Of a stretch of DNA of 64,000 nt, positions 825 through 62,392 are shown in pieces. Under the pieces are notes generated by a model. It saw only the letters and a program-made list of their open reading frames with translations. It did not search any database and had not been told where the DNA came from. Origin of the DNA: Candidatus Gastranaerophilales bacterium (lineage in GTDB: Bacteria; Cyanobacteriota; Vampirovibrionia; Gastranaerophilales; Gastranaerophilaceae); the NCBI GenBank assembly GCA_944324365.1, contig CALUWA010000006.1, positions 1,113-65,112 on the forward strand, written 5' to 3'. Each line of letters opens with the position of its first letter. The stretch's first letter is position 1. The position numbers were made by a program, and so were the translations under genes.

Positions 825-3503
825 ATGACAACAAAAAACAAAAAGACGGTCGATAATTTGGAAAAGGCTTTGAAAAGCTCTTCAAATTCCGTAGAGACTG
901 CCGAACAATTAGAGTTGCTTATTGAAAGAGTTAAGAAAGCTCAAAAGATTTATTCAACTTATACACAAGAACAGGTTGATGCGATATTCAAAGCTGCAGC
1001 AACTGCGGCTGATAAAGCTCGTATCCCGCTTGCAAGAATGGCTGTTGAAGAAACTGGTATGGGTGTTCTTGAAGATAAAATTATTAAGAACCACTTTGCA
1101 TCAGAATATATTTACAATAAACATAAACACGCTAAAACTTGCGGTATCATTAAAGAAGATAAAACAAACGGTATTAAAATTGTTGCTGAACCTCTCGGAG
1201 TTCTTGCAGGTATTGTTCCTACAACTAACCCGACTTCAACTGCAATTTTCAAAGCTTTAATTGCTTTAAAAACAAGAAACGCAATTATCTTTTCACCACA
1301 CCCAAGAGCAAAAAAATGTACAATTGAAGCTGCAAAAATAGTTTTAGAAGCTGCTGTAAAAGCAGGTGCTCCTGAAGATATTATCGGCTGGATTGACGTT
1401 CCTTCTATTGAGTTGTCAAGCCAGTTAATGCAGCACCCTTCAATTGCTTGTATCGTTGCTACAGGCGGCCCTGGAATGGTTAAGGCTGCTTATTCATCAG
1501 GCAACCCGGCACTTGGTGTAGGCCCTGGTAATGCTGCTGCTGTTATTGATGAAACCGCAGATATTAAAATGGCTGTTTCTTCAATTATTATGTCAAAAAC
1601 TTTTGATAACGGTATGATTTGTGCTTCAGAACAATCAGTTGTTGTTGTAGATAAAGTTTATGAAGAAGTTAAAAAAGAATTTATCTACAGAGGAGCTCAC
1701 TTGTTAACTCAGGCTGATGAAAAGAAATTAATTGCTCTTCCTTTCATTGACCCTAAACGCGGCACTGCTCATCCTGATATCGTTGGACAGACTGCTCACA
1801 GAATTGCAGAACTTGCAGGATTTGATGTTCCTCAAACTGCTAAACTTCTTCTTGCGGAAAGACCTTCAGTAGATTGGGAAGATCCGTTCTCAAGAGAAAA
1901 ATTGTCTCCGATATTGACGATGTATAAAGCAAAAGACTTTGAAGAAGCTGCAGAAATGGCTTATGAACTTGTTTCCAAAGGCGGTGCAGGCCATACAGCT
2001 GACTTGTATACTGATACACGTCGTCAGGAAAGAATTGACAGATATGCTGAAAAAATGCCGACTTGCAGAGTGTTGATTAACTCTCCATCTGCACAGGGCG
2101 GTATCGGTGATTTATATAACTTTAAACTTGAACCGTCACTTTCACTCGGCTGCGGTTCTTGGGGTAAAAACGCTGTTTCTGGTAACATCGGCGTTGAAAA
2201 CTTATTAAACTACAAGACAGTTGCAGAAAGGAGAGAAAATATGCTCTGGTTTAAGGTTCCGCCTAAAGTTTACTTCAAGAGAGGTTCAGTTGATTTAGCT
2301 CTCCGTGAACTTGAAGGCAAAAAACGTGCATTTATTGTAACCGACAGATTCTTATTTAACTCCGGTGCAGTTGATAGTATTGTTAATGTATTGGATGATA
2401 TCGGTATTGATCACCAAATCTTCTTTGATGTTAAACCGGATCCTACATTGTCTACAATCAGACAGGCTATGGAAATAATCAAACCGTACGAACCTGATGT
2501 AATTATCGCATTGGGCGGCGGTTCTCCGATGGATGCTGCTAAGATTATGTGGTTGATGTATGAACAGCCTGATACAGACTTCTCTGATATTTCTATGAGA
2601 TTTATGGATATCAGAAAGAGAATCTGCAGAATTCCTGAATTGGGTAAGAAGGCAACAATGGTTGCAATTCCTACAACATCAGGTACAGGTTCAGAAGTTA
2701 CTCCGTTTGCAATTATTACAGATGATGAAACTCACGTAAAATATGCAATCGCTGATTATGCATTAACTCCTAACATGGCTATCATTGACCCTAACTATGT
2801 TGATGGTATGCCAAAAGGATTAACAGCAGCTTCCGGTATTGATGCATTGGTTCACTCAACTGAAGCTTATGTATCATCAATGGCTACAAACTTTACAAAT
2901 TCAAATGCTTTGGAAGCTACAAAGTTAATCTTCAGATATCTTGAAAGATCATACAATGAAGGAGCTAACGATCCTGTTGCAAGAGAAAAAATGCATTACG
3001 CAGCAACAATAGCTGGTATGGCATTTGCAAACGCATTCTTGGGATTGTGCCACTCTATGGCTCACAAACTTGGTGCAATGTTCCACGTACCGCACGGTGT
3101 AGCTAACGCATTGTTATTCAGACAGGTTATCAAGTACAACGCTGTTGATTGTCCGAAAAAACAGGCAATCTTCCCGCAGTACAGATTCCCTAACGCTAAA
3201 GCTAAATATGCTCAAATCGCAGATGAGCTTGGTTTGGGCGGTAAGAATGATGATGAAAAAGTTGAATTATTCATAAAAGCTATTGAAGATTTAATGAAGA
3301 ATATCAACTTGCCATTCTCAATTAAAGAATTTGGTATTTCAGAAGCTGAATTCAATGAAAAATTGGATGAAATGGTTGAACTTGCATTTGACGATCAATG
3401 TACAGGTGCAAACCCGGCTTATCCGTTGATGGAAGATATTAAAGCTATCTACATCGATGCTTACAACGGTGTTGTAAGAGATTATTACAAGACTACAAAA
3501 TAG
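825..3503 (+). CDS. adhE: bifunctional acetaldehyde-CoA/alcohol dehydrogenase
   Basis: 892 aa. N-terminal aldehyde dehydrogenase domain (FDNGMICASEQS catalytic Cys region) fused to a C-terminal iron-containing alcohol dehydrogenase (GGGSPMDAAK; HSMAHKLG). SD is AAGGAG. Confidence 0.95.
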   Translation: MTTKNKKTVDNLEKALKSSSNSVETAEQLELLIERVKKAQKIYSTYTQEQVDAIFKAAATAADKARIPLARMAVEETGMGVLEDKIIKNHFASEYIYNKHKHAKTCGIIKEDKTNGIKIVAEPLGVLAGIVPTTNPTSTAIFKALIALKTRNAIIFSPHPRAKKCTIEAAKIVLEAAVKAGAPEDIIGWIDVPSIELSSQLMQHPSIACIVATGGPGMVKAAYSSGNPALGVGPGNAAAVIDETADIKMAVSSIIMSKTFDNGMICASEQSVVVVDKVYEEVKKEFIYRGAHLLTQADEKKLIALPFIDPKRGTAHPDIVGQTAHRIAELAGFDVPQTAKLLLAERPSVDWEDPFSREKLSPILTMYKAKDFEEAAEMAYELVSKGGAGHTADLYTDTRRQERIDRYAEKMPTCRVLINSPSAQGGIGDLYNFKLEPSLSLGCGSWGKNAVSGNIGVENLLNYKTVAERRENMLWFKVPPKVYFKRGSVDLALRELEGKKRAFIVTDRFLFNSGAVDSIVNVLDDIGIDHQIFFDVKPDPTLSTIRQAMEIIKPYEPDVIIALGGGSPMDAAKIMWLMYEQPDTDFSDISMRFMDIRKRICRIPELGKKATMVAIPTTSGTGSEVTPFAIITDDETHVKYAIADYALTPNMAIIDPNYVDGMPKGLTAASGIDALVHSTEAYVSSMATNFTNSNALEATKLIFRYLERSYNEGANDPVAREKMHYAATIAGMAFANAFLGLCHSMAHKLGAMFHVPHGVANALLFRQVIKYNAVDCPKKQAIFPQYRFPNAKAKYAQIADELGLGGKNDDEKVELFIKAIEDLMKNINLPFSIKEFGISEAEFNEKLDEMVELAFDDQCTGANPAYPLMEDIKAIYIDAYNGVVRDYYKTTK

Positions 3504-3521
3504 TTAATGTAAATAATAAGA

Positions 3522-3555
3522 AAAACCGCTCCGTATTCGGGGCGGTTTTCTTTTT
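3522..3555. terminator. bidirectional rho-independent terminator
   Basis: AAAACCGC-loop-GCGGTTTT hairpin followed by a T run, between convergent adhE and pilin-like A. Confidence 0.6.
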
Positions 3556-3562
3556 ACGGATA

Positions 3563-4720
3563 TTATTTCCAAGGATAGTCGTCTTTGAATGTCCAGCCGT
3601 CACCGGTGAATATTAGGAAACATAATGTAGGAAAGCCTCCGCCATAACTGGACTCTTTGCACATCTCTATAATATCATTTCTTGAAGATATATACATTCT
3701 TGGTAATCTCGGAATCTCAAATTTGCGATTTCCGGTGTTAAATACTGTGGCAATGTCAAAGACGTCACGGCCTACAATATTTGGGGCTTTTTGGCAATTA
3801 ACATCGGTTGTAAATGTTGCAAATTGGTTATTAGACCATAAAGTGATACAAGAGCCGTCTGCCAGTCTAAAGAATGCTCCTCTGGTAATTGAGCCGTCAT
3901 GAAAATATGCATCTTGCCCGTTAAAATTATATGCATGGTATGTATCTGTAAATTTATGAGCTCTGGCTCCGGATGTTCTCAGATACGGCATATAATATTT
4001 TTCTACAAATTCTGTTTGTGTAATTTTGGCCGGTATAGATTCGCCTGTATCCGGATCTGATGATGATATAGGCATATCCCAATATTCCATATCTCCGAAA
4101 TCTTTTACTGCCATTAAATGTGCGTTATATAAAAGAGAATATGTTCTTTTAAGTTGAGTAGCGGTAACAATTTTCTGGTACTTTGCTATAAGCATTGGCA
4201 TTGTCATAGCAGCGACAATACCGATAATGCCAAGGGTAATAAGAACTTCCGCAAGTGTGAAGGCTGCTTTTTCTTTTAGATCGCGGACAGGCTTACGCCT
4301 TCCGCGATGACATGCGGCAGGCAAGATGTACCATAGTTTGTCATCGCGTACTTCGTTGTGCGATCTTTTCTTCTGGATTGCTTCGCTAACTATCGGATTA
4401 TTCGGGTTGTCGCCGGAGTGACGTCCGGCTCCAACTTGCGGGCTGGGGCACTTCGTGCCACGGCACCCTTCCGAAAATCCGACCTCGCAATGACGCCTAA
4501 TGTCATCCTGAACTTGTTTCAGGATCTTACTACCATCGCAATGTGACAATTTGCTTTGGATACTCTTTTCCCGGATTGCTTCACTTCGTTCGCAATGACG
4601 TATGGTGTCATCCTTACAAAGCGAACCGCTGGTTACATTGTCATCCTGAGCGATAGCGAAGGATCTCTTATTTAATGAGATTCTTCGGGCTAAAGCCCTC
4701 AGAATGACAAAAGGCGTCAT
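3563..4720 (-). CDS. type IV pilin-like protein A (prepilin-type N-terminal methylation motif) with repeat-built extended leader
   Basis: KAA|FTLAEVLITLGIIGIVAAMTMP motif (F codon 4261-4259) followed by a 232-aa mature domain ending GDGWTFKDDYPWK; paralog of C. The N-terminal ~153 aa of the track ORF is a translation of palindromic repeats. The frame stays open upstream as far as the G tract at 4819-4830. True initiation is uncertain. Confidence 0.75.
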   Translation of the reverse strand: MTPFVILRALARRISLNKRSFAIAQDDNVTSGSLCKDDTIRHCERSEAIREKSIQSKLSHCDGSKILKQVQDDIRRHCEVGFSEGCRGTKCPSPQVGAGRHSGDNPNNPIVSEAIQKKRSHNEVRDDKLWYILPAACHRGRRKPVRDLKEKAAFTLAEVLITLGIIGIVAAMTMPMLIAKYQKIVTATQLKRTYSLLYNAHLMAVKDFGDMEYWDMPISSSDPDTGESIPAKITQTEFVEKYYMPYLRTSGARAHKFTDTYHAYNFNGQDAYFHDGSITRGAFFRLADGSCITLWSNNQFATFTTDVNCQKAPNIVGRDVFDIATVFNTGNRKFEIPRLPRMYISSRNDIIEMCKESSYGGGFPTLCFLIFTGDGWTFKDDYPWK

Positions 4721-4760
4721 TGCGAAACGCGAAGCGTTGAAGCAATCCAGAAAATTGCAA
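4270..4760. repeat. cluster of GC-rich GTCAT...ATGAC palindromic repeat modules inside the leader region of pilin-like A
   Basis: Modules seen: ATCGCGGA-N13-TCCGCGAT (4280-4308); GTCATCCTGAAC-TTG-TTTCAGGATC (4502-4526); GGATTGCTTC...GCAATGAC (~4573-4599); a 69-nt hairpin GTCATCCTGAGCG...CCCTCAGAATGAC (4640-4708); GTCATTGCGAAACGCGAAGCGTTGAAGCAATCC (~4716-4748). Homologous modules occur at 55562-55632 and 61012-61640. Confidence 0.85.
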
Positions 4761-4818
4761 TACCGGGTTTTAAAAGTGTCTAAAAGGCTGAAACTATCTC
4801 CAAAAGCGGAGAGTCTAG

Positions 4819-4830
4819 CCCCACCCCCCC
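4819..4830 (-). repeat. interrupted homopolymer (G7-T-G4 on coding strand) after the upstream ATG of pilin-like A
   Basis: Plus strand reads CCCC-A-CCCCCCC. It sits 14 codons after ATG 4871-4869 (SD GGAGG 4885-4881). As assembled, the frame stops at TAG 4817-4815. Confidence 0.9.
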
Positions 4831-4907
4831 TGGAGAATATAGGTATAATCAGTGTTTTCAGATTTTAACATTTGATATATCCTCCATAAATTCAAGTATC
4901 TGTTAAT

Positions 4908-4936
4908 ATTTTAACGTGTGTTTCTACATTTTTCAA
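4908..4936 (-). promoter_or_regulatory. sigma70-type promoter of pilin-like locus A
   Basis: Minus strand TTGAAA (4936-4931), 17-nt spacer, TAAAAT (4913-4908), about 35 nt upstream of ATG 4871. Near-identical module at locus C. Confidence 0.6.
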
Positions 4937-5029
4937 TATTAGATTTTTAATTAGCTCTCCAGATGTGTAATTGTATTTATAAAGTTTTGGTTTATGATAA
5001 TATTGTTTTTAAGATAAGGGAGAAATTTT

Positions 5030-5422
5030 ATGAAAAAAAATATTATCATAGTTTTGCTTGTATTGATTTTGCCGATTTTGGCATATATGTTCTTAAGTGC
5101 CGGGTCTGGCAGTGACATGGGGAGTGTAGATGCAAAAACTACAAAACCGCAGATTATAAAATTTACTTCTGCGATGTGTTTAGATTGCCAGACTATGAAT
5201 AAAATAATGAAAGAAATTTATCCGCAGTATCAGGATAGAATTGCCCTAACGGAAATCCATGTTCAGGATAATAAGCCGGAAACTCAGGATTGGATAAAAA
5301 AATACAATGTAACGCTTGTCCCTACGATTATTCTGATGAATTCACAAGGACAGCAGGTGCGTCGTATTGAAGGGGCTGTTGACAGAAATGTTTTTGAAGG
5401 ATACTTAAAGGAGCTTAAGTAA
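5030..5422 (+). CDS. thioredoxin-fold protein (TlpA/ResA-like), membrane-anchored
   Basis: N-terminal hydrophobic anchor and a CLDC (CxxC) motif in a thioredoxin-like context. Translationally coupled to ccdA. Confidence 0.75.
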   Translation: MKKNIIIVLLVLILPILAYMFLSAGSGSDMGSVDAKTTKPQIIKFTSAMCLDCQTMNKIMKEIYPQYQDRIALTEIHVQDNKPETQDWIKKYNVTLVPTIILMNSQGQQVRRIEGAVDRNVFEGYLKELK

Positions 5423-6126
5423 TGCTGAATTATGCGGATTTATTTACGGACGGAGCCAGTATTCCGCTTTTATATCTGATTTCTTTTCTCGGAGGCCTTG
5501 TCGCTTCAATATCGCCGTGTTCATTGGCTATGCTGCCTATAATTATAGGTTATGTAGGCGGATATTCCGATGCAAAGCCCTCAAAAACTTTTATGCAGCT
5601 TTTCTTTTTCATAATCGGTTCTGCAATTGTGTTTTCCGTGATTGGGATAATTTGTGCCGTGACCGGGAAAGTTTTTGTGTCATTTGCAGGAGGGTATTTT
5701 AGTGTAATTATCGCAAGTATTGTTTTAATTATGGGCTTAAAACTTGTCGGTGTGCTTGATTTTGAACTGCCTGTTTTAATAAAGGAAATGCCGAAAAACG
5801 ATGGTACCAGTAATTTTCTTTATCCGATTCTTTTAGGCGGTGTGGTGGCACTTGCGGGTACTCCCTGCTCAACTCCGATATTAGCTGCAATTATGGCTTT
5901 TGCCTCGCTTTCCGCAAGTCTGACCCAATCTGTCATTATGCTGTTTTTGTTCTCTTTGGGACAGGGTTTGATATTGGTGTTTGCCGGTGTTTTAACTTCG
6001 AAACTTAAAACCTGGAAAAATTTTTATAAGATTTCCGATTTGCTTTTGAAATTCAGCGGGATTTTATTAATATTAACGGCATTTTATATTTTTTATAAGA
6101 TTTTTGCGCCTCTGCTTGTAAAATAG
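5422..6126 (+). CDS. ccdA: cytochrome c biogenesis/thiol-disulfide transporter CcdA (DsbD transmembrane domain family)
   Basis: Polytopic membrane protein with the two conserved Cys motifs (ISPCSLAMLP and GTPCSTPIL). Start overlaps the upstream stop (TAATG). Confidence 0.85.
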   Translation: MLNYADLFTDGASIPLLYLISFLGGLVASISPCSLAMLPIIIGYVGGYSDAKPSKTFMQLFFFIIGSAIVFSVIGIICAVTGKVFVSFAGGYFSVIIASIVLIMGLKLVGVLDFELPVLIKEMPKNDGTSNFLYPILLGGVVALAGTPCSTPILAAIMAFASLSASLTQSVIMLFLFSLGQGLILVFAGVLTSKLKTWKNFYKISDLLLKFSGILLILTAFYIFYKIFAPLLVK

Positions 6127-6177
6127 TTCTCTATGTTGTAAAATAGGAATAGATTACAGGATATGTGGAGAAAATAA

Positions 6178-6636
6178 ATGAAAACTTATGAAGGTCAACT
6201 TGTTGTTAGTGATGAAAAATTTTGTATCGTAATTTCAAGATTTAACGATTTTATAGGGTCAAAACTATTGTCCGGAGCTGTTGATGAACTAAGACGCCAC
6301 GGTGTTAATCCGGATAATATTGATATAGTAAAGGTTCCTGGAGCTTTTGAAATTCCTCTTGCGGCATTGAAATTTGCAAAAACCGGCAGGTATAATGCAA
6401 TTATTACGCTTGGAGCAATTATAAAAGGTGCAACAGCTCATTTTGATTATGTAAGTGCGGAGTTGTCAAAAGGAATTGCACAAGTTGGGCTGCAGTGTGA
6501 AATCCCTGTTATCTTCGGGGTATTGACAACCGAAAATATTGAACAGGCTATTGAAAGAGCCGGAACAAAAGCCGGAAACAAAGGCTCAGAAGCTGCTAAA
6601 GCTGCGATTGAAATGGCTAATTTGATGAAATTATAA
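6178..6636 (+). CDS. ribH: 6,7-dimethyl-8-ribityllumazine synthase
   Basis: 152 aa; typical RibH sequence ([12 protein letters not shown]..., [15 protein letters not shown]). Confidence 0.92.
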
Positions 6637-6686
6637 ATAGTTTTCTGCAAGTAATTGGTGTTTATAAGTTATAAGGAGGTAGCGGC

Positions 6687-7580
6687 ATGAGTGACATTAT
6701 TACGGAATACAGAAATGAAAACACGAAGGATATTGATATCCTTCCTACTATTGAAATTGTCAGAAAGATGAACAATGAGGACAAACTTGTTGCTCTTGCT
6801 GTTGAGGATGAAGCGGAGCATATCGCTGATGCTATAGATTTAATCGCAAAGCAGTTTTTAAAAGGCGGCAGACTTTTCTATTTTGGAGCCGGAACATCTG
6901 GTCGTCTTGGTATTTTGGATGCTTCCGAATGTCCTCCGACATTCAGCGTTTCTCCGGATATGGTTCAGGGGATTATTGCAGGCGGTGACAGAGCAATGAG
7001 AAAGTCTGTTGAAGGTGCCGAGGATGATTTTGATCTTGGAAAAGAAGATGCAAAAGTTTTGACTGATAAAGATGTAGCGGTTGTGATTTCTGCAAGCGGC
7101 AACCCTAAATATTTGCTTGGCGTTCTTGCGCAGGCAGATGAAGTTAACTGTAAAACTATAGCTGTTACGTGTAATTCTAAAGGAAGGGTTGCGGAAGAAG
7201 CCGGGCTGGTGATTTGCGCAGAAGTAGGGCCGGAAGTTATCGCGGGCTCCAGCAGGCTGAAAGCCGGTACTGCACAAAAGATGATTTTGAATATGCTTAC
7301 AACCGGTTCTATGATAAAAATCGGTAAGACTTACGAAAACTTTATGATAGATTTGCAAGCAGTAAATGAAAAGCTAAAAGACAGAGCAATAAGAATTGTA
7401 GCACAGATTGCAGATGTAACACATAGTGAGGCCCTTGCAGCACTTTTGAAATGCAATTGGGAAATTAAAACTGCAATTGTTTCTATTATAATGAAAATGG
7501 ATGTTGATACCGCCAGGTCAGAATTAAAAAAACACGGCGGAGTATTAAGAAAATTGATTAAGACAAAACTTGCGGTATAG
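6687..7580 (+). CDS. murQ: N-acetylmuramic acid 6-phosphate etherase
   Basis: SIS-domain protein with GAGTSGRLGILDASECPPTF and the SSRLKAGTAQK motif typical of MurQ. Confidence 0.9.
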   Translation: MSDIITEYRNENTKDIDILPTIEIVRKMNNEDKLVALAVEDEAEHIADAIDLIAKQFLKGGRLFYFGAGTSGRLGILDASECPPTFSVSPDMVQGIIAGGDRAMRKSVEGAEDDFDLGKEDAKVLTDKDVAVVISASGNPKYLLGVLAQADEVNCKTIAVTCNSKGRVAEEAGLVICAEVGPEVIAGSSRLKAGTAQKMILNMLTTGSMIKIGKTYENFMIDLQAVNEKLKDRAIRIVAQIADVTHSEALAALLKCNWEIKTAIVSIIMKMDVDTARSELKKHGGVLRKLIKTKLAV

Positions 7581-7591
7581 GGAGAGAGAGA

Positions 7592-8593
7592 ATGAAATTA
7601 ACGGTATTAGGTGCAGGATGCTGGGGGCTGACATTAGCCTGGCTTTTGACTGATAATTTTGATGAAGTTACGGTTTGGGGCAGAGCGCAGGACTTGTCTG
7701 AAGATTTGATAAACAACAAACACGCCTCTAAGCCGCTTGAAGTTCAGTTGTCTGAGCATGTTGAGGTTACATCAAACCTTGAAAAAGCAATAGAAGGTGC
7801 TGATATTATATTATCGGTTGTAGCAACCTCAGGTGTAAGAGATGTTTGCGAGCACTTGAAAACAGCCGGAATTAAGCCAAATCAAATTCTGGTAAATGCC
7901 TCAAAGGGTATAGAACTTCCTTCCTTGATGAGAATGTCGGAAGTTATTAAAGAGGTTTTGCCTGAACAGAAGCTTGCAATTCTTTCGGGGCCTACATTGG
8001 CTAAAGAAGTTTTGGCGGGTAAACCTACTGCGGCTTGTGTTGCAAGTGATGATATGGCGGCTGCGGAATTCGTTCAGCATGCCTGCAATGTTCCAAACCG
8101 GTTCAGGTTGTATACAAACAGCGATGTTATAGGGGTTGAACTTGGCGGAAGTTTAAAAAACGTTATTGCTATTGCCTCCGGCTTTGCGCATGAGATGAAT
8201 TTAGGCGACAACTGCGCAGGAACCCTTCTTACACGCGGGATGGCTGAGATTGTGAGAGTCAGTATAAACCTTGGAGCGAATCCTTCGACATTATACGGGC
8301 TTTCCGGCATGGGTGATTTGATTGCGACTTGTTCCAGCCCGATGTCAAGAAATTATACAGTCGGTTCAATGCTTGCTAAGGGTAAGAAAGTCGATGATAT
8401 ATTAAAAGAGTTAGGCTCTGTGGCGGAAGGTGTAAAAACATCTAAAGCGATCTGTGAACTTGCAAAAAAACTCGGGATTGAGGTGCCGGTGTCGAATGCA
8501 ATATATGAAGCCGTTTACACGGATATTACACCGCAGGAGCTTTTGTCAAAATTAATGAACAGAAAGTTGAAAGAAGAAGAAAGATACGTTTAA
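7592..8593 (+). CDS. gpsA: NAD(P)H-dependent glycerol-3-phosphate dehydrogenase
   Basis: N-terminal GAGCWG Rossmann motif, GSLKNVIAIA and GDLIATC motifs. Confidence 0.92.
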   Translation: MKLTVLGAGCWGLTLAWLLTDNFDEVTVWGRAQDLSEDLINNKHASKPLEVQLSEHVEVTSNLEKAIEGADIILSVVATSGVRDVCEHLKTAGIKPNQILVNASKGIELPSLMRMSEVIKEVLPEQKLAILSGPTLAKEVLAGKPTAACVASDDMAAAEFVQHACNVPNRFRLYTNSDVIGVELGGSLKNVIAIASGFAHEMNLGDNCAGTLLTRGMAEIVRVSINLGANPSTLYGLSGMGDLIATCSSPMSRNYTVGSMLAKGKKVDDILKELGSVAEGVKTSKAICELAKKLGIEVPVSNAIYEAVYTDITPQELLSKLMNRKLKEEERYV

Positions 8594-51077: not shown

Positions 51078-52148
51078 TTATTTTGTTTCTATGTAATTAG
51101 TATTCGGAATATATTGCTGCTGCTGGTTAATATCAATTTTGTTAATGATATTGGCGCGTTTTTTGCGGAAAAGCATATCTACAAACGCCTCCAGTCTTGT
51201 GATAAATCCTGCTTCACCGGTTTGCTCGTCAATTGTAAGGTGCAGGATAGGCTTGTTAAATTGTTTTGCTTTCCTTACTATTCTTTCAATCATCAAAGAA
51301 TCAGGGCCGCAGCCGAATGCGTTAAGCGCAATAATCCCGTCTATTTTGTTATCTTTAAGATAATGTCCGGCAGTTCCGGTCATTTCAAACTCATTTGCCC
51401 AGTATAATTTTTCACCGAGGGCGTTTATGCCTTCCATAGTTTGTTCTTTGGATAATTGAAGCGATGTATACACTTTTACATCCATACTTTCAAGTTTATC
51501 AATAATTTTCATGGAAGTGCGTTCATCAAAAATATTATATCCGTGTGAAACGAGCGCTATTGAAATCGGATATTCTTTTGTATTATTTTCAATGAAAACT
51601 TTACCCTGAAGTGCGTAGTTAATAGCTTTTTTATAACTCATTCCGGATTTGGACATAATGTGGAAATTGTTGTAAGTCCTCCAGCCTGCTTTTGAAGCTT
51701 CTTTAATTTTGTTTTCATCGGTAATTCCGAATGCCGCAGCGGCTTGTTTCAAAAATTCATACAAGCCCTGGTTCTTTTCTGACTTGTCTAATGTTGCTTC
51801 AACCATAGTGAAAGGTTTTTTTACAACGTTTCTGATTAAGTCCGGCAATCCTCTGATTTTAGAGCAGTTATAAATCTTTGGCGCAATAGATTGGATAGAC
51901 GGCACAAAGATTTTATCAATACCTTTATCTATCAGGTTAAGAATGTGGCCTACATAAACTTTAATAGGCAGGCACGTCTCCGTCACAACGAGCGCGGAAC
52001 CGCTTGACATTGTTTGTTTTGTAGTCACATCAGATAATACAATTTTAATCCCCAGAGCAGTGAAAAAACCGTAGTAGAACGGATAGTTGTGATAAAAGTT
52101 CATAGCTCTTGGTATCCCTATAACCATTTCATTATTATTTGCTTGCAT
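51078..52148 (-). CDS. acyl-CoA dehydratase activase-related protein (DUF2229-like)
   Basis: N-terminus IGIPRAMNFYHNYPFYYGFFTALGIKIVLS...TCLPIKVYVGH is characteristic of this family. Confidence 0.6.
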   Translation of the reverse strand: MQANNNEMVIGIPRAMNFYHNYPFYYGFFTALGIKIVLSDVTTKQTMSSGSALVVTETCLPIKVYVGHILNLIDKGIDKIFVPSIQSIAPKIYNCSKIRGLPDLIRNVVKKPFTMVEATLDKSEKNQGLYEFLKQAAAAFGITDENKIKEASKAGWRTYNNFHIMSKSGMSYKKAINYALQGKVFIENNTKEYPISIALVSHGYNIFDERTSMKIIDKLESMDVKVYTSLQLSKEQTMEGINALGEKLYWANEFEMTGTAGHYLKDNKIDGIIALNAFGCGPDSLMIERIVRKAKQFNKPILHLTIDEQTGEAGFITRLEAFVDMLFRKKRANIINKIDINQQQQYIPNTNYIETK

Positions 52149-52371
52149 TATAAGATATTTCTCCCTGTCAGATAATCTTTATTTTACTACCTTTATAATA
52201 CTTCAAAACGGAGAAAAAAGCTATAAATTTGTAACAAAATTTTAATAAAAGGTAATAAAGAAAAGAGAGTATGGAACTCAAGCCATTAACTTACGTTTGT
52301 TGTAATACAAGAGTGCCGGAGTAATGCTTTCTTTTTTGCCTTCTTTTTTCTTTGAGCTAAAGAAAAAAGAA

Positions 52372-52516
52372 TGGTGGCCCCGGCGCGATTGTCTTGGTCG
52401 CTCGCGTGTAACGGCATTCCGTATTTTGCTAATGTGTTTTCAACACAATCGCAAAATAGCTCCAGCCTCAGCTCGCTCCCGCTCGACCGCAATAGGCGTT
52501 CTCATCGCTGCCGGGG
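52372..52516 (-). ncRNA. candidate structured small RNA, copy A (hypothetical)
   Basis: Extended -10 TGTTACAAT (52533-52525). 5' CCCCGGCAGCGAU pairs with 3' AUCGCGCCGGGG (12 bp, one bulge), followed by CCACCA and a T-rich tail. Internal 8-bp UAUUUUGC/GCAAAAUA stem encloses a GUGUU-GAA-AACAC hairpin. No family recognised. Confidence 0.3.
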
Positions 52517-52578
52517 TTATGTTTATTGTAACACAAAGCTTCCTTAGGAATTTTTTCCTTCAAATGTAAAAAAAAGAA

Positions 52579-52723
52579 TGGCGGCCCCGGCGCGATTGTC
52601 TTGGTCGCTCGCGTGTAACGGCATTCCGTATTTTGCTAATGTGTTTTCAACACAATCGCAAAATAGCTCCAGCCTCAGCTCGCTCCCGCTCGACCGCAAT
52701 AGGCGTTCTCATCGCTGCCGGGG
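52579..52723 (-). ncRNA. candidate structured small RNA, copy B (hypothetical)
   Basis: Same as copy A shifted by 207 nt. The 3' end reads CCGCCA. Confidence 0.3.
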
Positions 52724-52785
52724 TTATGTTTATTGTAACACAAAGCTTCCTTAGGAATTTTTTCCTTCAAATGTAAAAAAAAGAA

Positions 52786-52862
52786 TGGTGGCCCCGGCGC
52801 GATTCGAACGCGCGATCTTCGGTTTAGGAAACCGCTGCTCTATCCTGCTGAGCTACGAAGCC
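52786..52862 (-). tRNA. tRNA-Arg (anticodon CCT), CCA encoded
   Basis: Hand-folded cloverleaf: acceptor GGCUUCG/CGGGGCC, D arm GCUC/GAGC, anticodon loop UUCCUAA, T arm GCGCG-UUCGAAU-CGCGC, discriminator A plus CCA. Confidence 0.85.
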
Positions 52863-52868
52863 GTAAAA

Positions 52869-52942
52869 TATGCTTGACGGGAGTCAAACCCGTGACCTTC
52901 GGCTTCGGAGACCGACGCTCTATTCAACTGAGCTACAAGCAC
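52869..52942 (-). tRNA. tRNA-Arg (anticodon CCG), no encoded CCA
   Basis: Hand-folded cloverleaf: acceptor GUGCUUG/CAAGCAU (G1-U72), anticodon stem UCGGU/GCCGA, loop CUCCGAA, T arm ACGGG-UUUGACU-CCCGU. The unusual U56 is matched by a D loop (AGUUGAAUA) lacking the GG pair. Confidence 0.7.
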
Positions 52943-53005
52943 AAATTATAAAATAATTGTACTATAACCCGGTTTATTTTTCAATCATAATTTGCAATAA
53001 TCAGA

Positions 53006-53152
53006 TTATTTGTTCATGACTGCCAATACAACTTCTGCCAGAACTTTACGTCCTTTTTGGGGTTTAAAGTAAATTTCTTTTTTGGTAGGTTCCGGGGCAA
53101 ATTCTGATTTCTGATAATTTATTAAAAATCTCATAAATTCGGGACTAAACAT
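53006..53152 (-). CDS. hypothetical small protein (48 aa)
   Basis: ATG 53152 preceded by AAAGGAGAAAT. MFSPEFMRFLINYQKSEFAPEPTKKEIYFKPQKGRKVLAEVVLAVMNK. Below the ORF-track cut-off. Confidence 0.4.
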   Translation of the reverse strand: MFSPEFMRFLINYQKSEFAPEPTKKEIYFKPQKGRKVLAEVVLAVMNK

Positions 53153-54874: not shown

Positions 54875-55702
54875 TTACTTCCACGGATAATCGTCTTTGA
54901 TTTGCCAGCCATCGTAAACTATTATCGCAAAACAAGCTGCTTGTTTGCCTCCATTGTATGTGTGTGTTTTGCAGCCGGAGTTGTTCATTATTTGTTCTCT
55001 AGGAAATGATTTAAACGCATCAAGTCCTGCAATAAATGGTTTTTTGTTGTTCATGTAATATAATTCAAAAATATCAAAAATATCCCTGCCGTATATATTT
55101 GGGCCTTTTTCACAATTTAAATCTGTCGTTAATACAACATACTGATTATTAGACCACAGTGTAAGACAAGAGCCATCGGACATTCTGAAGGAGCTGCCTC
55201 TGCCATGAACATTATCGTATTGAATATCTTGTCCGTTAAAATTGTATGCTTTGTATAATCCGGATTTCTTTTTCTGATGCTGCAGGTACGGCAGATAATA
55301 TCTTTCAAGAAATTCATCATTAGTTATACTTCTTTGGTTATTTTCATCAGTAATCGGGTAGTCCCAGTATATTGAATCCCCGTAATCATTAACCGCCATC
55401 TGGTAAGCATTAGAAAGGAGTGAATAAGTTCTTTTAAGCTGGGTAACAGTCACGAGTTTTTGGTACTTTGCAATTAACTGCGGCAAAGTCATTGCCGCGA
55501 TAATTCCGATTATGCCGAGGGTAATAAGGACTTCCGCTAACGTGAATGCTGCTTTCTTTTTGTCATCCTGAGGATGAAATCCGAAGGATCTCTTGCTTAA
55601 TGAGATTCTTCGGGCTTTGCCCTCAGAATGACGATTGGTGTTCTTCTTACAAAGGAAGCCGCCAATAATCCAAGAAGCATTGTAATGTCGTACCTCAGGC
55701 AC
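54875..55702 (-). CDS. type IV pilin-like protein C, upstream start out of frame (OFF as assembled)
   Basis: KKKAA|FTLAEVLITLGIIGIIAAMTLP (F codon 55546-55544). The mature domain is a paralog of A and ends YDGWQIKDDYPWK. The track start is a GTG without an SD. The frame is open upstream to the G12 tract. Confidence 0.78.
   Translation of the reverse strand: MPEVRHYNASWIIGGFLCKKNTNRHSEGKARRISLSKRSFGFHPQDDKKKAAFTLAEVLITLGIIGIIAAMTLPQLIAKYQKLVTVTQLKRTYSLLSNAYQMAVNDYGDSIYWDYPITDENNQRSITNDEFLERYYLPYLQHQKKKSGLYKAYNFNGQDIQYDNVHGRGSSFRMSDGSCLTLWSNNQYVVLTTDLNCEKGPNIYGRDIFDIFELYYMNNKKPFIAGLDAFKSFPREQIMNNSGCKTHTYNGGKQAACFAIIVYDGWQIKDDYPWK
55562..55632. repeat. 71-nt GTCATCCTGAGG...CCTCAGAATGAC palindromic module inside the leader of pilin-like C
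   Basis: Imperfect long hairpin. Same module as 4640-4708 and 61044-61111. Translated in the pilin frame as HSEGKARRISLSKRSFGFHPQDD. Confidence 0.85.
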
Positions 55703-60598: not shown

Positions 60599-61266
60599 AG
60601 TTTAATTTTAACAATACTGCGGCTAAAGTGCAAGTTTTATATTTAGTGCCTGAGGTACGATACTATAACGCTTCTTGGATTATTGGCGGCTCGACCGGCT
60701 CAACGCAGCTCTCGCCTGGACGAGTTTCGCTGCGCTCACTCTTGCCAAAATCTGCTTCGCTGTGCGAGACGCACTATTAGTAGTATTTATTGTTCATTTT
60801 CTCTTTTTTATTGCGAAGAAAAAAGCGGATTGTGAGCGTAGAGTGAAGAGCGTTGCCATAGGGCAATGCTCTGGAACTCGTAATACGCGAACAACCAAGC
60901 AGAGAAAACGAACCAAAAGAGAAAAACACGCAATCGTTTTTTGCGCTGCCTGCGGCATCGCTTTGACCGAATGGATATACGTTCCGTTTGCTTCGCAAAC
61001 GAAATCGTTAAGCGCTGCTAAGGACAACGCAGCGCAATAAATCGTCATTCAGAGGGCGAAGCCCGAAGAATCTCCTTAAATGAGAGATCCTTCGCTAACG
61101 CTCAGGATGACACTAAGAGTCATTGCGAGGAGCTTTGCGACGAAGCAATCCACTAGGTTAAAGCGTATTCTCCTGGATTGCTTCGCTAGCGCTCGCAATG
61201 ACGTAAAAAGTGCTGCGTTGTCCTTAGCAGCGCAGCGTCATGTAAAAGAGGACTGTGGCCTCCCCC

Positions 61267-61295
61267 TTGCAAAATTTGTGAACGTCGTTTATACT
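61267..61295 (+). promoter_or_regulatory. sigma70-type promoter of pilin-like locus D
   Basis: TTGCAA (61267-61272), 17-nt spacer, TATACT (61290-61295), followed by AAAAGGAGGA and ATG 61318. Confidence 0.55.
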
Positions 61296-61348
61296 AATAG
61301 AAAAGGAGGATATAGATATGCAAAAGTCAAGTATAGCGCGGAAACACC

Positions 61349-61358
61349 GGGAGGGGGG
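61349..61358 (+). repeat. interrupted G tract (G3-A-G6) after the upstream ATG of pilin-like D
   Basis: Located 10 codons after ATG 61318. The assembled frame stops at TAA 61369-61371. Confidence 0.9.
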
Positions 61359-61603
61359 TATCTGCATCTAAGTCAGGGCAAGGGTTTGTGCCCGTTTGCC
61401 ATTGCGGCGAGCCTGAGGCTCTACACTATGACGCTGCGCTTCGTGGAATGCTACAATTAATCCAAGAGAAGAGATCGCGGACAAACCTTTGGTTTTCCGC
61501 GATGACATGTGGCTGGCGGAAGGTTCCAAAACCTGTCATCACGCACTTGTTGCGCGATCTATGAATTGCTTCGTCGCAAGCTCCTCGCAATGACGAGAAA
61601 TAT

Positions 61604-62392
61604 TTGCTTAGCAACCCTTTACTGAAAATCCGACCTTGCAATGACAGGAAAAAGAGTTTCTTCGGATTTCATCCTCAGAATGACATAGCAAAGAAAGCGG
61701 CGTTTACGCTTGCGGAGGTGCTGATTACGCTTGGTATAATCGGTGTAATCGCAGCATTGACATTACCCGGACTGCTTGCAGAGTATTCAAAGGTTGTGGT
61801 TGAAACAAAATTAAAAAAATTCTATTCCCAGATAAATCAGGCAGTACAGTTATCAGAAGCAGAGTATGGGGATAGAGCATACTGGCATCTTGGCGTAAAT
61901 ACTCTGGAATTTGATGAGAATGGAAAACCTATTCCGGGTACATCTTCTGTTGAGCAATGGTTTATGAAGTATATAGCTTCTCATATGACAGTAATTAAAG
62001 TTGATTATGATGATAATGCCAGACCAACGTTTTATTTTAAAGATGGTACGGCCTTAAAGCAAATGAATGGTTCTATCCAATCTTCTCATGAGGATTGGAA
62101 TCAGGATTGGATGTTTTATACTTCAAATCCGGAAAAATGTGAAAAGTTATATGGTTCTGAATATAAAGCACGAGGTCGATGCAGTTTTGCATTTATGTAT
62201 TTGACTGTTAGCGATGATCCTGCCTATAAAAATTTGGTAGGTAAAGGATTTGAGCCTTATAAGTATCGTTGGGATGGAACTGTTCGCTATTTTAAGGAAA
62301 GATGTAAAACTCAGCCTGAATACTGCACAGCCTGGATTCATTTGAACGGGTGGAAAATTCCTGATGATTATCCGTTTAAGGTTTCTTATTAA
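61604..62392 (+). CDS. type IV pilin-like protein D (possibly silent or decayed expression site)
   Basis: AKKAA|FTLAEVLITLGIIGVIAALTLP. C-terminus NGWKIPDDYPFKVSY is related to A and C. The track start is a TTG without an SD. The pilin frame is open back to the G tract except for one TGA at 61562-61564. Confidence 0.7.
   Translation: MLSNPLLKIRPCNDRKKSFFGFHPQNDIAKKAAFTLAEVLITLGIIGVIAALTLPGLLAEYSKVVVETKLKKFYSQINQAVQLSEAEYGDRAYWHLGVNTLEFDENGKPIPGTSSVEQWFMKYIASHMTVIKVDYDDNARPTFYFKDGTALKQMNGSIQSSHEDWNQDWMFYTSNPEKCEKLYGSEYKARGRCSFAFMYLTVSDDPAYKNLVGKGFEPYKYRWDGTVRYFKERCKTQPEYCTAWIHLNGWKIPDDYPFKVSY

Follow-up and report, generated by a model that had tools for sequence, protein, structure and literature searches.

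The repeats behind the tyrT gene of E. coli have reportedly been known since 1978 and the rtT RNA since 1991, the older literature being said to comprise Egan & Landy (1978), Rossi et al. (1981) and Bosl & Kersten (1991). To our knowledge, neither a function nor an origin has been established for RtT to date, and to say of another element that it works like RtT therefore explains little. In finished E. coli genomes, the arrays consist of 3.14 copies of a 178-bp repeat behind tyrT/tyrV and of 1.4 copies behind proK, where the arms and the hairpin P1 follow tRNA-Pro. The rttR annotation starts right behind tyrV and stops at the CCA of its first repeat, so that the annotated RNA terminates in the CCA of a copied tRNA end. 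That RtT exists as an RNA is documented; it has been described as a processing product of the tyrT transcript with a possible tie to the stringent response (bioRxiv 10.1101/2024.07.17.603846).

Here we describe an array from a Candidatus Gastranaerophilales bacterium, a melainabacterium of the gut, located in a stretch of 64,000 nucleotides (contig CALUWA010000006.1) that was analysed as a whole and is called the window below. Our preferred reading, which we hold with moderate confidence, is that the array consists of two tandem copies of an RtT-like, tRNA-linked element that would give rise to a CCA-ended RNA by tRNA processing.

Results

A tandem array behind tRNA-Arg(CCT)

Analysis with Tandem Repeats Finder delimited an array at 52363-52804 with a period of 207, 2.1 copies and a 99% match (Table 1). 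The first-pass annotation had described two 207-bp units with one mismatch, and this was what we found on the minus strand: units A and B differ only at unit position 204 (G vs A), which is the discriminator position of their tRNA-derived end. As had also been noted, a copy of the 3' end of tRNA-Arg(CCT), ATCGCGCCGGGGCC(G/A)CCA, closes each unit and is followed by TTCTTTTTT, as in the tRNA itself. The copied segment corresponds to nt 59-76 of the tRNA; a copy of the T-stem 5' strand and of half of the T loop, which each unit contains as well, had been missed. No tRNA-like cloverleaf was detected in the units by ARAGORN or the Rfam tRNA model, whose calls were the two real tRNAs only.

The perfect 13-bp A/T palindrome described at the distal edge of the array was found at 52341-52353 / 52359-52371, with a hairpin energy of -14.8 kcal/mol. 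The sequence of the distal boundary represents a third copy of the spacer, partial and diverged, and is likely to have been the terminator region of the tRNA operon originally; at locus L017 it was found directly after the tRNA as well, and a similar palindrome lies downstream of the units at loci L043 and L061. The reported lack of a nearby integrase held among the scanned window neighbours, which included genes for SMC, ScpA, a peptidase, a PRK-family kinase, a DUF2229 protein and a serine dehydratase; the scanned neighbours were housekeeping or uncharacterised genes, and none was a recombinase. A synteny search via the downstream DUF2229 gene returned relatives at 84-90% identity that had other neighbours and no tRNA there.

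Table 1. Positions of the tRNA genes, the two repeat units and their parts in the window.
Feature	Position	Strand	Remarks
Promoter-like site of the tRNA operon	52956..52984	-	TTGAAA, 17-nt spacer, TACAAT; consensus scan, 10/12 matches; 13 nt upstream of tRNA-Arg(CCG)
tRNA-Arg(CCG), CCA not encoded	52868..52943	-	ARAGORN; Rfam tRNA 65 bits
tRNA-Arg(CCT), host tRNA gene, CCA encoded	52786..52862	-	ARAGORN; Rfam tRNA 61.7 bits
Copied segment of the host tRNA-Arg(CCT), nt 59-76	52786-52803	-	Comparison of ends
Unit A (proximal), 207 bp	52579..52785	-	Spacer and RtT-like RNA module; ends GGGGCCGCCA
Spacer, unit A	52724..52785	-	Unit B equivalent 52517-52578; contains U-run
Small palindrome GGAAAAAATTCC in unit A spacer	52754-52765	-	
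5' arm CCCCGGCAGCGAU, antisense to tRNA nt 59-70	52711..52723	-	Unit B 52504-52516; fold
GAGAAC and hairpin P1 (GAACGC / GCGGUC), ends GUCGA	52690..52710	-	Unit B 52483-52503
Conserved rod, 93 nt	52597..52689	-	Unit B 52390-52482; covariance model R1, 107 bits on both units
3' arm of unit A, AUCGCGCCGGGGCCGCCA, copy of tRNA nt 59-76	52579..52596	-	
Unit B (distal), 207 bp	52372..52578	-	Ends GGGGCCACCA
3' arm of unit B	52372-52389	-	A at discriminator position
Distal boundary	52299..52371	-	A/T palindrome 52341-52371, then TGTATTACAAC at 52299-52309

Anatomy and fold of the unit

Each unit consists of a spacer and a structured RNA module of ~146 nt, for which a partial copy of the adjacent tRNA gene serves as the framework. 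The module runs from an antisense arm through GAUGAGAAC, hairpin P1 and a ~93-nt rod to tRNA nt 59-76, and in the fold its 5' arm pairs with the 3' arm to form the closing helix of the unit. The minimum-free-energy fold (-55.2 kcal/mol, z = -3.1 vs shuffles) contained both the 12-bp closing helix with one bulge (CCCCGGC-A-GCGAU / AUCGC-GCCGGGG) and the UAUUUUGC/GCAAAAUA stem around a GUGUU/AACAC hairpin that had been proposed. The comparison of homologues did not uphold a further hairpin, ACGG-AAUG-CCGU: its third pair shows uncompensated variation (G, U or A), and its GCC pairs instead with an upstream GGC in a helix that has compensatory changes.

The 3' strand of P1 is a copy of the T-stem 5' strand plus the 5' half of the T loop. 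P1 has one mismatch in the window units and is perfect in the unit of L014; in other units this segment tracks the cognate tRNA allele and T-loop variant. The rod follows position 58 of the T-loop copy (the 58/59 junction), at the very point from which the loop would run on, and contains the box UCGAGCGGGAGCGAG, helices with tandem G.A pairs, a covarying hairpin P2 (52629-52665) and the box GCGAGCGACCAAGACA. In the spacer, the extended -10-like TGTTACAAT reported earlier is present in both units (52732-52740 and 52525-52533). It is retained in strain variants as TGTATTACAAT (L012) and TGTATTATAAC (L017) and is absent in L014; its sequence makes it a candidate promoter. The ORFs of the unit span only 21-68 codons, some with TTG starts, and none had support as a coding sequence.

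A family of units in Gastranaerophilales

About 70 related copies were found behind 10-11 different tRNA/tmRNA genes, the hosts being tRNA-Arg(CCT/TCT), Tyr, Lys(TTT/CTT), Ser, Leu(CAG/CAA/GAG), tmRNA and perhaps His. A scan of species-representative genomes keyed on one exact 20-mer of the rod gave 35 true loci, nearly all from Gastranaerophilales or Vampirovibrio, plus one viral contig, and a second, independent block supplied 23 metagenome loci; the covariance model R1 gave 54 + 25 matches. The family plan comprises a spacer, often with a terminator-like hairpin, an arm, (GAU)GAGAAC, a hairpin, the rod and a tRNA 3' end. An arm antisense to the 3' part of the tRNA occurs in only about half of the units, with equivalents of the 5' arm seen in Tyr, Leu(CAG), Ser and some tmRNA units and in E. 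coli RtT. Complementarity between the 5' and 3' arms was not significant family-wide in a simple shuffle test, the arm helix being real in some host groups only. The hairpin that copies the cognate T stem and half of the T loop is usually present across the family; its T-stem copy follows the host allele (tmRNA GCGGG, GUGGG and AGGGG) and its T-loop copy the host variant (TTCAAGT, TTCGAGT).

Comparison with related genomes, which had been suggested as a check, revealed homologues with compensatory changes. In a MAFFT alignment, 12 pairs had changed on both sides, and none of 500 shuffles scored as high. In the model-fitted alignment, 17 of the 26 pairs had changed on both sides and 95% of cells were paired, vs 33-43% in slid controls. 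On the tRNA strand, G-U pairs outnumbered A-C pairs by 12 to 5. The invariance of GAGCGGGAGCGAGCTGAGGC in the first alignments is partly an artefact, because this string was the search key.

No match to the array was found in plasmid and phage collections by blastn, nor any Rfam family for the unit, down to a single unit at E <= 10. A YrlA (Y-RNA-like) identity was dropped, the YrlA match falling on real tRNAs. Hammerhead and other small ribozymes, a permuted tmRNA, a retron ncRNA and a primer-binding site were considered from the sequence and dropped, as were REPIN- or PATE-like DNA hairpins, since GCGAGC/GCGAGC, a pair of conserved segments, would form mismatches as DNA. Two further matches were seen: a weak rod-like one elsewhere in the window (60817-60902), and one of 49 bits within a recG ORF (L066).

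Relation to E. coli RtT

We class the melainabacterial unit as a distant variant of the RtT kind. Both elements immediately follow a tRNA gene at its 3' end, share its strand and occur in tandem, and each ends in host tRNA nt 59-76. In the structure line of RF00391, the Rfam model of RtT RNA, as in the window unit, a 5' arm antisense to the tRNA end forms a closing helix and is followed by GAUGAGAAC. P1 of E. coli RtT, in which GAAC and a T-stem complement pair with the T-stem 5' strand and GUUC, tracks its host (AAGGUUC for Tyr, GGAGGUUC for Pro), as here. A hairpin with the host T stem repeated in it and GUUCGA at its end, a trait of RtT, was found in the window units with one mismatch. The box UCGAGCGnnAGCGAG stands at the start of the central domain in E. 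coli RtT and in both window units; TCGAGCGNNAGCGAG gave 62 matches in the 1.35 Mb searched vs 0.02 expected, among them three E. coli RtT copies and both window units. Furthermore, E. coli RtT and the melainabacterial units share a central G+C hairpin and a purine-rich AGCGAC..A segment right before the tRNA copy.

The two also differ in several respects. The rod measures ~93 nt here vs ~68 nt in E. coli, with an extra helix and a two-part hairpin here, and the separate UUCGA that lies ahead of the UCGAGCG box in E. coli overlaps with it in the melainabacterial units. In many of the latter, unlike in E. coli RtT, the spacer provides a terminator-like hairpin and a -10-like box of the unit's own. 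They belong to the Cyanobacteriota (Vampirovibrionia), whereas RtT belongs to the Proteobacteria, and have many more tRNA hosts. RF00391 scored the E. coli copies at 133-137 bits, and its gathering threshold of 45 bits was not reached by the melainabacterial units; searches of the window region, a single unit, six other loci and the L048 unit (160-1000 nt) returned no match at E <= 10. When R1 was run on E. coli RtT, it fell inside all five copies tested, on the correct strand, with weak scores of 3.5-12 bits. The case for common descent therefore rests on the architecture and one 13-nt box; the two elements may share an ancestor or, alternatively, may have converged.

Of the three readings offered in the first-pass annotation, a small CCA-tailed RNA gene family is the best supported, both by the homologues with compensatory changes and by the architecture of E. 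coli RtT, although the link to RtT had gone unrecognised.

Insertion-like behaviour

At tRNA genes the units behave as insertions would, and the DNA next to them is often variable and island-like. A direct repeat is formed by the displaced tRNA 3' fragment and the regenerated tRNA gene, with the duplication starting at T-loop position 59. When tmRNA loci were compared between species, the sequence directly after the gene was 82% alike and that after the displaced fragment 61%, the interior of the element being conserved and the distal flank species-specific. In a sister species (L090) and at L091, tRNA-Arg(CCT) has no unit, in a between-species comparison in which the T arm of that tRNA differs. 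Unit 2 of L049 bears the tRNA-Arg(TCT) end of another species. No neighbouring protein was common to more than 3-4 loci; a large serine recombinase with DUF2924 was present at three (L035, L045, L050), at variable distance, and absent elsewhere.

Such behaviour could be expected of a non-autonomous miniature integrative element (cis-mobilisable-like), put into the tRNA T loop by a recombinase encoded elsewhere, for example in prophages or islands. The rod and arms would then be the recombination site, possibly as folded single-stranded DNA mimicking the duplex tRNA gene, and the arrays would arise by accretion. The stretch from the T loop to the 3' end of tRNA genes is a classical integration location, with which the duplication from position 59 to 73-76 agrees (PMC4383910). 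The conserved interior between species-specific distal flanks, the empty site in the sister species and the foreign allele fragment in L049 are consistent with integration, as are a 0.85-kb ORF as cargo in L049, a type I restriction system by the units in L043, Gabija-like genes in L062, prophage genes in L023 and L030, and the three serine recombinases downstream of units. The antisense arm and P1 would also rebuild the duplex of tRNA-gene positions ~49-70.

However, we consider this explanation unlikely. There is no recombinase in or beside the units, nor a neighbour protein that recurs across loci, and a single conserved rod adjoins 10-11 tRNA sequences, which sequence-specific integrases would not permit. 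The rod splits the T-loop copy, so that there is no contiguous core site. The segments GCGAGC/GCGAGC and GGGAG/CGACC are mismatched in DNA, whereas tandem G.A pairs are possible in RNA; L049:5387 has Watson-Crick GAGGUG/CACCUC in place of GGGAG/CGACC; and the excess of G-U over A-C on the tRNA strand likewise argues for RNA, as does the documented RNA product of E. coli RtT (bioRxiv 10.1101/2024.07.17.603846). The earlier suggestion of a miniature integrative element at the tRNA 3' end is thus apt as a description of behaviour, and falls short in that no recombinase is linked to the units.

A wider proposal, to which we give a low probability, is that RtT-like modules form a cross-phylum tRNA-homing class, structure- or RNA-guided and with its enzyme elsewhere, and that in Gastranaerophilales they are the boundaries of a cassette-like accretion. 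If this were true, the rod would be placed at T-loop 58/59 of the copied tRNA 3' part, an antisense arm would be newly made along with it, and the modules would bound the accretion of defence genes and prophages at tRNA/tmRNA genes.

Copy number among strains

Six other conspecific contigs with an identical SdhB protein carried one unit, vs two in the window, these single-copy counts coming from short-read metagenome assemblies in which repeats may be collapsed. Because the six carry one unit, we take the second copy to be a strain-level amplification. The variation in copy number about which the first-pass annotation had raised the question was therefore seen (one vs two). Unit A matches the single unit of contigs L013 and L016 at 100% identity; the single copy has G in these two and A in the other conspecific contigs. 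An array of related units also extends across L058 and L042 in a long-read MAG (OZ007029.1).

That the second copy is an artefact of assembly, and that the true locus has one unit, appears very unlikely. The six single-unit contigs would agree with it, and a 207-bp repeat of 99.5% identity is hard for short-read assemblers; against this, the copies differ by one base and both variants occur as a single copy in other strains, tandem arrays of the family are also present in the long-read MAG and in finished E. coli genomes, and short-read assemblers usually merge tandem repeats instead of multiplying them.

There is also very little probability that the units are a functionless relic, in which a displaced tRNA 3' fragment and the arm of a long-lost element were doubled by unequal crossing-over. 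A displaced tRNA fragment is the usual footprint of integration, and the decayed 3' arms (L033, L038, L032, L076), the truncated units (L012, L030, L041, L047) and the differing copy number between strains are compatible with a relic. Yet the sequence and the 26-pair structure, with its 17 covarying pairs, have been kept across many species and tRNA hosts, and the same plan is maintained in E. coli. The idea of an integration scar amplified by unequal crossing-over can accordingly be kept as to the amplification, which fits because other strains have one copy, and not as to the scar, which does not suit a conserved covarying structure.

Scarcely credible is a TnpB omega-RNA-like guide RNA, with a conserved scaffold, a 3' guide of 15-18 nt that equals the tRNA 3' end and the T-loop TTCGA as adjacent motif, that would direct a protein encoded elsewhere to tRNA genes: the layout (TTCGA, ~93 nt, then flank as after TTCGA in the intact tRNA, with no extra junction duplication) and a variable 3' segment that changes with the host tRNA are in keeping with it, but no TnpB, IscB or Cas gene lies beside any of ~60 loci (Pfam and PHROG scans of neighbours in many loci), truncated units are broken off at various positions next to unrelated ORFs, many units have their 3' segment base-paired to the 5' arm, and the intact neighbouring tRNA gene would be a self-target.

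Discussion

For the two window units, read as RtT-like elements, we propose the following mechanism. Transcription of the units would proceed on the tRNA strand, as read-through from the tRNA operon, from their own -10-like box, or both. Through the tRNA-derived 3' end, the tRNA 3'-maturation machinery would set the unit end at the CCA, as in the annotated 171-nt rtT RNA, and this processing would release one stable structured RNA per unit. A CCA-ended RNA is probably released from the unit by tRNA processing. Copy number would shift by unequal crossing-over between the direct repeats formed by the tRNA end and the spacer.

The ~70 copies behind 10-11 tRNA/tmRNA genes constitute a second, deeply diverged branch and provide comparative leverage beyond the enterobacterial copies. 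Constant parts are the UCGAGCGnnAGCGAG box, the tandem G.A helices and the rod; rewritten for each host tRNA are the T-stem copy, the T-loop junctions, the antisense arm and the 3' end. The modules come and go like insertions and often edge variable, island-like DNA. The question of RtT becomes testable in terms of a box-binding protein, release at the CCA and the copying of a new tRNA end in both orientations. At present, Rfam annotation misses such elements outside enterobacteria.

Beyond RtT, the units can be compared with several known systems. Islands and prophages integrated in tRNA/tmRNA genes, including the tycheposons of Prochlorococcus, likewise show a direct repeat of the tRNA 3' part from the T loop, and use the same target set of tRNAs and tmRNA (PMC4383910; bioRxiv 10.1101/2020.12.28.424599). 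A full-text look at the tycheposon preprint (bioRxiv 10.1101/2020.12.28.424599) found no mention of PRE1, a repeat element, non-coding or hairpin. Like the units here, tRNA-integrated islands form arrays whose older members are displaced towards the outside, and are associated with variable and defence DNA. Unlike them, the units have no integrase and are only ~170-210 bp long, their conserved rod adjoins the repeat whatever the tRNA, their T-loop copy is split, and they have an antisense arm.

The attC site of integrons is a structured, imperfectly paired element of ~60-140 nt at the 3' end of each cassette, in an array anchored at a fixed site. The units resemble it in their structured end and fixed anchor and in being either empty or gene-carrying (L049). 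They differ from integrons in having no IntI-type integrase by the anchor, no R/L box consensus and a tRNA gene as anchor, and from attC in their conserved boxes and G.A pairs, which point to RNA. In TnpB omega-RNA and the right end of IS200-IS605 elements, a conserved scaffold is followed by a 3' segment from the flank. The flank-derived 3' segment, the short motif TTCGA at the left and the lack of target duplication at the junction are similar here, whereas the units have no tnpB or tnpA nearby, often have a base-paired 3' segment and are always tRNA-linked. Finally, 3'ETS-leuZ of E. coli is an sRNA that derives from a tRNA operon trailer and is liberated by the enzymes of tRNA processing. 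Although 3'ETS sRNAs, unlike the units here, are short, unstructured and unrepeated and have no tRNA-end copy, the likeness would lie in a trailer-derived RNA that is released by tRNA processing.

Organization of the tandem array

Two tandem repeats, a proximal unit A and a distal unit B, were located behind the tRNA-Arg genes of the window. The first-pass annotation had described two 207-bp units with one mismatch and a tRNA-derived end; this was confirmed, and the one base at which they differ, G or A, was found to copy the discriminator position of the tRNA. Each unit ends with the last 18-19 nt of the tRNA followed by an identical TTCTTTTTT. The fold that had been described proved to be the minimum-free-energy fold (-55.2 kcal/mol, z = -3.1). 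The claim that no integrase lies nearby also held, as Pfam revealed no recombinase among the scanned window neighbours (SMC, ScpA, serine dehydratase, the DUF2229 protein and others with other or no Pfam domains). CCA is encoded by tRNA-Arg(CCT), behind which the units lie, and not by the adjacent tRNA-Arg(CCG). The 48-codon ORF just upstream of the tRNA operon has a good ribosome-binding site and no family assignment; it was called in every conspecific contig and has 49 codons in sister species.

Coordinates of the array and of related features (L-numbers are other contigs or loci fetched for comparison)
Sequence	Feature	Position	Strand	Remark
Window	Promoter-like TTGAAA-17-TACAAT	52984..52956	minus	first in order, ahead of both tRNA-Arg genes
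Window	tRNA-Arg(CCG)	52943..52868	minus	
Window	tRNA-Arg(CCT)	52862..52786	minus	
Window	Unit A	52785..52579	minus	
Window	Unit B	52578..52372	minus	
Window	13-bp A/T palindrome	52371..52341	minus	
Window	DUF2229 gene	52148..51078	minus	~190 bp past palindrome
Window	48-codon ORF	53006-53152	minus	
Window	Interspersed repeats	60600-61700		~1.1 kb
Window	R1 match	60817-60902	plus	21.7 bits
Window	Perfect inverted repeat, 22 nt	61012-61033 / 61212-61233		
Window	Perfect inverted repeat, 17 nt	61119-61135 / 61578-61594		
L012	2-kb replacement	1316-3319		homologous to window ~52150-52660
L035, L045, L050	Serine recombinase loci	L035:5068-6968; L045:3576-6555; L050:449-2352	opposite	two tmRNA genes, one tRNA-Ser gene
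L043	Restriction system and YgjP-like protein	3150-7914		
L049	Three-unit array	5249-6790		
L062	Gabija-like genes	4022-7553		
L066	R1 match in recG ORF	7728-7810	minus	49 bits
L099	E. coli K-12 proK units	NC_000913.3, 3708340-3708615		

Distribution and anatomy of the units

When species-representative genomes were searched with a 20-mer of the conserved part, 38 loci were found, 35 of them true units (nearly all from Gastranaerophilales or Vampirovibrio MAGs), plus one viral contig; a different block matched 23 metagenome loci. R1, a covariance model of the unit's central part, gave 54 and 25 matches in the collected loci, diverged subtypes and tandem arrays among them. Rfam held no family matching these units. 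They lay 130-190 nt behind their host genes, namely tRNA-Arg(CCT), Arg(TCT), Tyr(GTA), Lys(TTT), Lys(CTT), Ser(GGA), Leu(CAG), Leu(CAA), Leu(GAG), tmRNA and perhaps His(GTG). In every host, the 15-18 nt following the conserved ...GACCAAGACA were the host gene's own 3' end, beginning immediately past the T-loop TTCGA (or TTCA/TTCAA).

Directly 5' of the conserved part we found the 5' strand of the host T stem and the first half of the T loop, matched allele by allele: tRNA-Tyr units carry CGGUGGUUCGA, and the tmRNA alleles GCGGG, GUGGG and AGGGG are each matched by their own unit's copy. The split point was identical in T loops TTCAAGT and TTCGAGT. An upstream GAAC plus T-stem complement pairs with the T-stem copy as hairpin P1, and about half of the units have an arm antisense to nt 59-70 just ahead of (GAU)GAGAAC. 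A unit thus amounts to a partial tRNA copy, from about position 49 to 76, that is interrupted past position 58 by a ~93-nt insert and comes with an antisense strand able to pair with both halves.

The insert folds as one long irregular hairpin, in which GGGAG/CGACC and GCGAGC/GCGAGC each contain tandem G.A pairs; at L049:5387 Watson-Crick GAGGUG/CACCUC stands instead of the former. Compensatory changes were found in helix UGAGGC/GCC-GUUA (L038, L049), and covariation was abundant in the two-part hairpin. A MAFFT alignment revealed both-sided changes in 12 pairs, with none of 500 shuffles as high. In the model-fitted alignment, which leans towards structure, 17 of 26 pairs changed on both sides and 95% of cells paired, compared with 33-43% when partners were slid. 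The ACGG/CCGU hairpin proposed in the first-pass annotation was unsupported by the comparison of units. On the tRNA strand, G-U pairs exceeded A-C pairs (12 versus 5), which mildly favours an RNA transcribed from this strand.

Insertion-like behaviour

At tmRNA loci, the 45 nt after the gene (within the element, and comprising a terminator-like hairpin and a -10-like box) were 82% alike between species, whereas the 45 nt beyond the displaced fragment, the 3'-end copy closing the unit, were 61% alike, as expected from insertion into different chromosomes. At three loci (L014, L052 and L059) the copy contains a CCA that is missing from the gene ahead of it. The array in L049, behind tRNA-Arg(TCT), holds three units of three diverged subtypes; the diverged unit 1 has the resident 3' end, unit 2 has that of another species' allele, and a 0.85-kb ORF lies on the opposite strand between units 2 and 3.

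Two tmRNA-type units had defence genes directly upstream: in L043 the R subunit of a type I restriction system together with a YgjP-like protein, and in L062 a Gabija-like set made up of a UvrD helicase and an OLD-family ATPase with TOPRIM. No tmRNA gene was found within several kb of either unit. Ahead of the element, L062, L075 and L084 have a pseudo 3' end that is shortened (GGACTGTTCGCTCCA). Elsewhere, T7-like prophage genes (L023) or an endolysin-like amidase (L030) stood beside a unit, and at three loci a large serine recombinase (Resolvase and Recombinase domains) with an adjoining DUF2924-type gene lay 1-3 kb downstream. No protein recurred generally beside units across the loci compared, and we consider it unlikely that these are mini integrative elements moved by a recombinase encoded elsewhere.

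Variation among strains and species

Proteins flanking the array assign the window to the order Gastranaerophilales of gut Melainabacteria. The conspecific set comprised ten contigs encoding an identical serine dehydratase beta chain (SdhB). A single unit, 96.6-100% identical to the window unit, was found in six of them, so having two copies, as the window does, is a strain-level state; single-copy contigs may be collapsed short-read repeats. An assembly artefact, which would account for the second copy only, is very improbable. Among the variants, L017 has one unit, in which the distal palindrome region has been copied in place of the spacer. In L014 the module (89% identity) lies directly behind the tRNA, without the -10-like box and with a shorter 5' arm, and its tRNA-Arg(CCT) lacks an encoded CCA although the unit's copy has one. 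The L012 unit breaks off after ~123 nt, and 2 kb replaces its distal half and the palindrome; the 667-codon ORF therein, on the opposite strand, had no Pfam or PHROG match. L021 was left out of unit scoring because its contig stops inside the spacer. One sister species (SdhB 84% identical) has tRNA-Arg(CCT) with a different T arm and without a unit, and another (80%) lacks this tRNA altogether.

Other repeats and rod-like matches

A separate stretch of short interspersed repeats, not linked to tRNA, contained short ORFs without Pfam matches and no supported gene. Within it, R1 gave a weak match; the hairpin contained there, GAGCGUUGCC..GGCAAUGCUC, recalls that of E. coli RtT. Parts of the stretch recur at window ~4640-4760 and ~55550-55700. 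Parts are also present in L014 and L085, where the 48-codon ORF lies on one side and the tRNA operon on the other. The L066 match falls inside an 823-codon recG ORF, between the wedge and helicase domains; either an in-frame insertion or an unusual match by chance could account for it.

Proposed working and comparison with E. coli RtT

The comparisons established the structure and conservation of the units, their tracking of the host tRNA, their tandem state and variation, and an insertion-like pattern. By analogy with rtT RNA, the units would be transcribed either along with the tRNA operon or from a -10-like box of their own, and trimming at the tRNA-like 3' end would leave one structured RNA per unit; copy number may change when the repeated tRNA end and spacer undergo unequal crossing-over. 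That units with a covarying fold are a neutral scar is highly doubtful, and a guide RNA is an even more far-fetched reading.

At E. coli K-12 tyrT-tyrV, the 178-bp repeats (3.1 copies) are Rfam RtT (RF00391, 133-137 bits), as is a fourth copy that separates tyrT from tyrV. The order of parts is the same as in the window units: GGGGAAGGAU, antisense to tRNA-Tyr nt 59-68; GAGAAC, then GAACCUU/AAGGUUC repeating the tRNA-Tyr T stem; GA, then UCGAGCGnnAGCGAG; a G+C hairpin, then a purine-rich AGCGAC..A segment; and lastly AUCCUUCCCCCACCACCA. Annotated rttR runs from just past tyrV to the CCA closing AUCCUUCCCCCACCACCA. In the proK units, arms and P1 follow tRNA-Pro (GAACCUCC/GGAGGUUC; 3' arm AUCCUCU...CACCGACCA), and K-12 has one full RtT-like unit there and a second cut after GGTTCGACTCGA. 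The truncated unit adjoins REP-like sequence. Both are unannotated in the K-12 record; 'RtT sRNA' is annotated there in other E. coli records.

The box TCGAGCGNNAGCGAG (13 specified bases), defined on melainabacterial units, was present in three E. coli tyrT copies, with 62 matches over all sequence examined versus 0.02 expected. In each of the five E. coli copies R1 found a weak match (3.5-12 bits), with the two terminal boxes anchoring the alignment. RF00391 yielded no match at E <= 10 among melainabacterial units, down to the single unit. Since plan and box are common to both, yet RF00391 is without a match, we class the window repeats as RtT-like by their architecture and probably also by descent, although the Rfam model does not count them as members. 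The feature is real, and represents a distant variant of the RtT kind, which is known but unexplained. It offers comparative leverage on RtT and reveals such modules, in a different phylum, behind many tRNA genes and often next to variable, island-like DNA.
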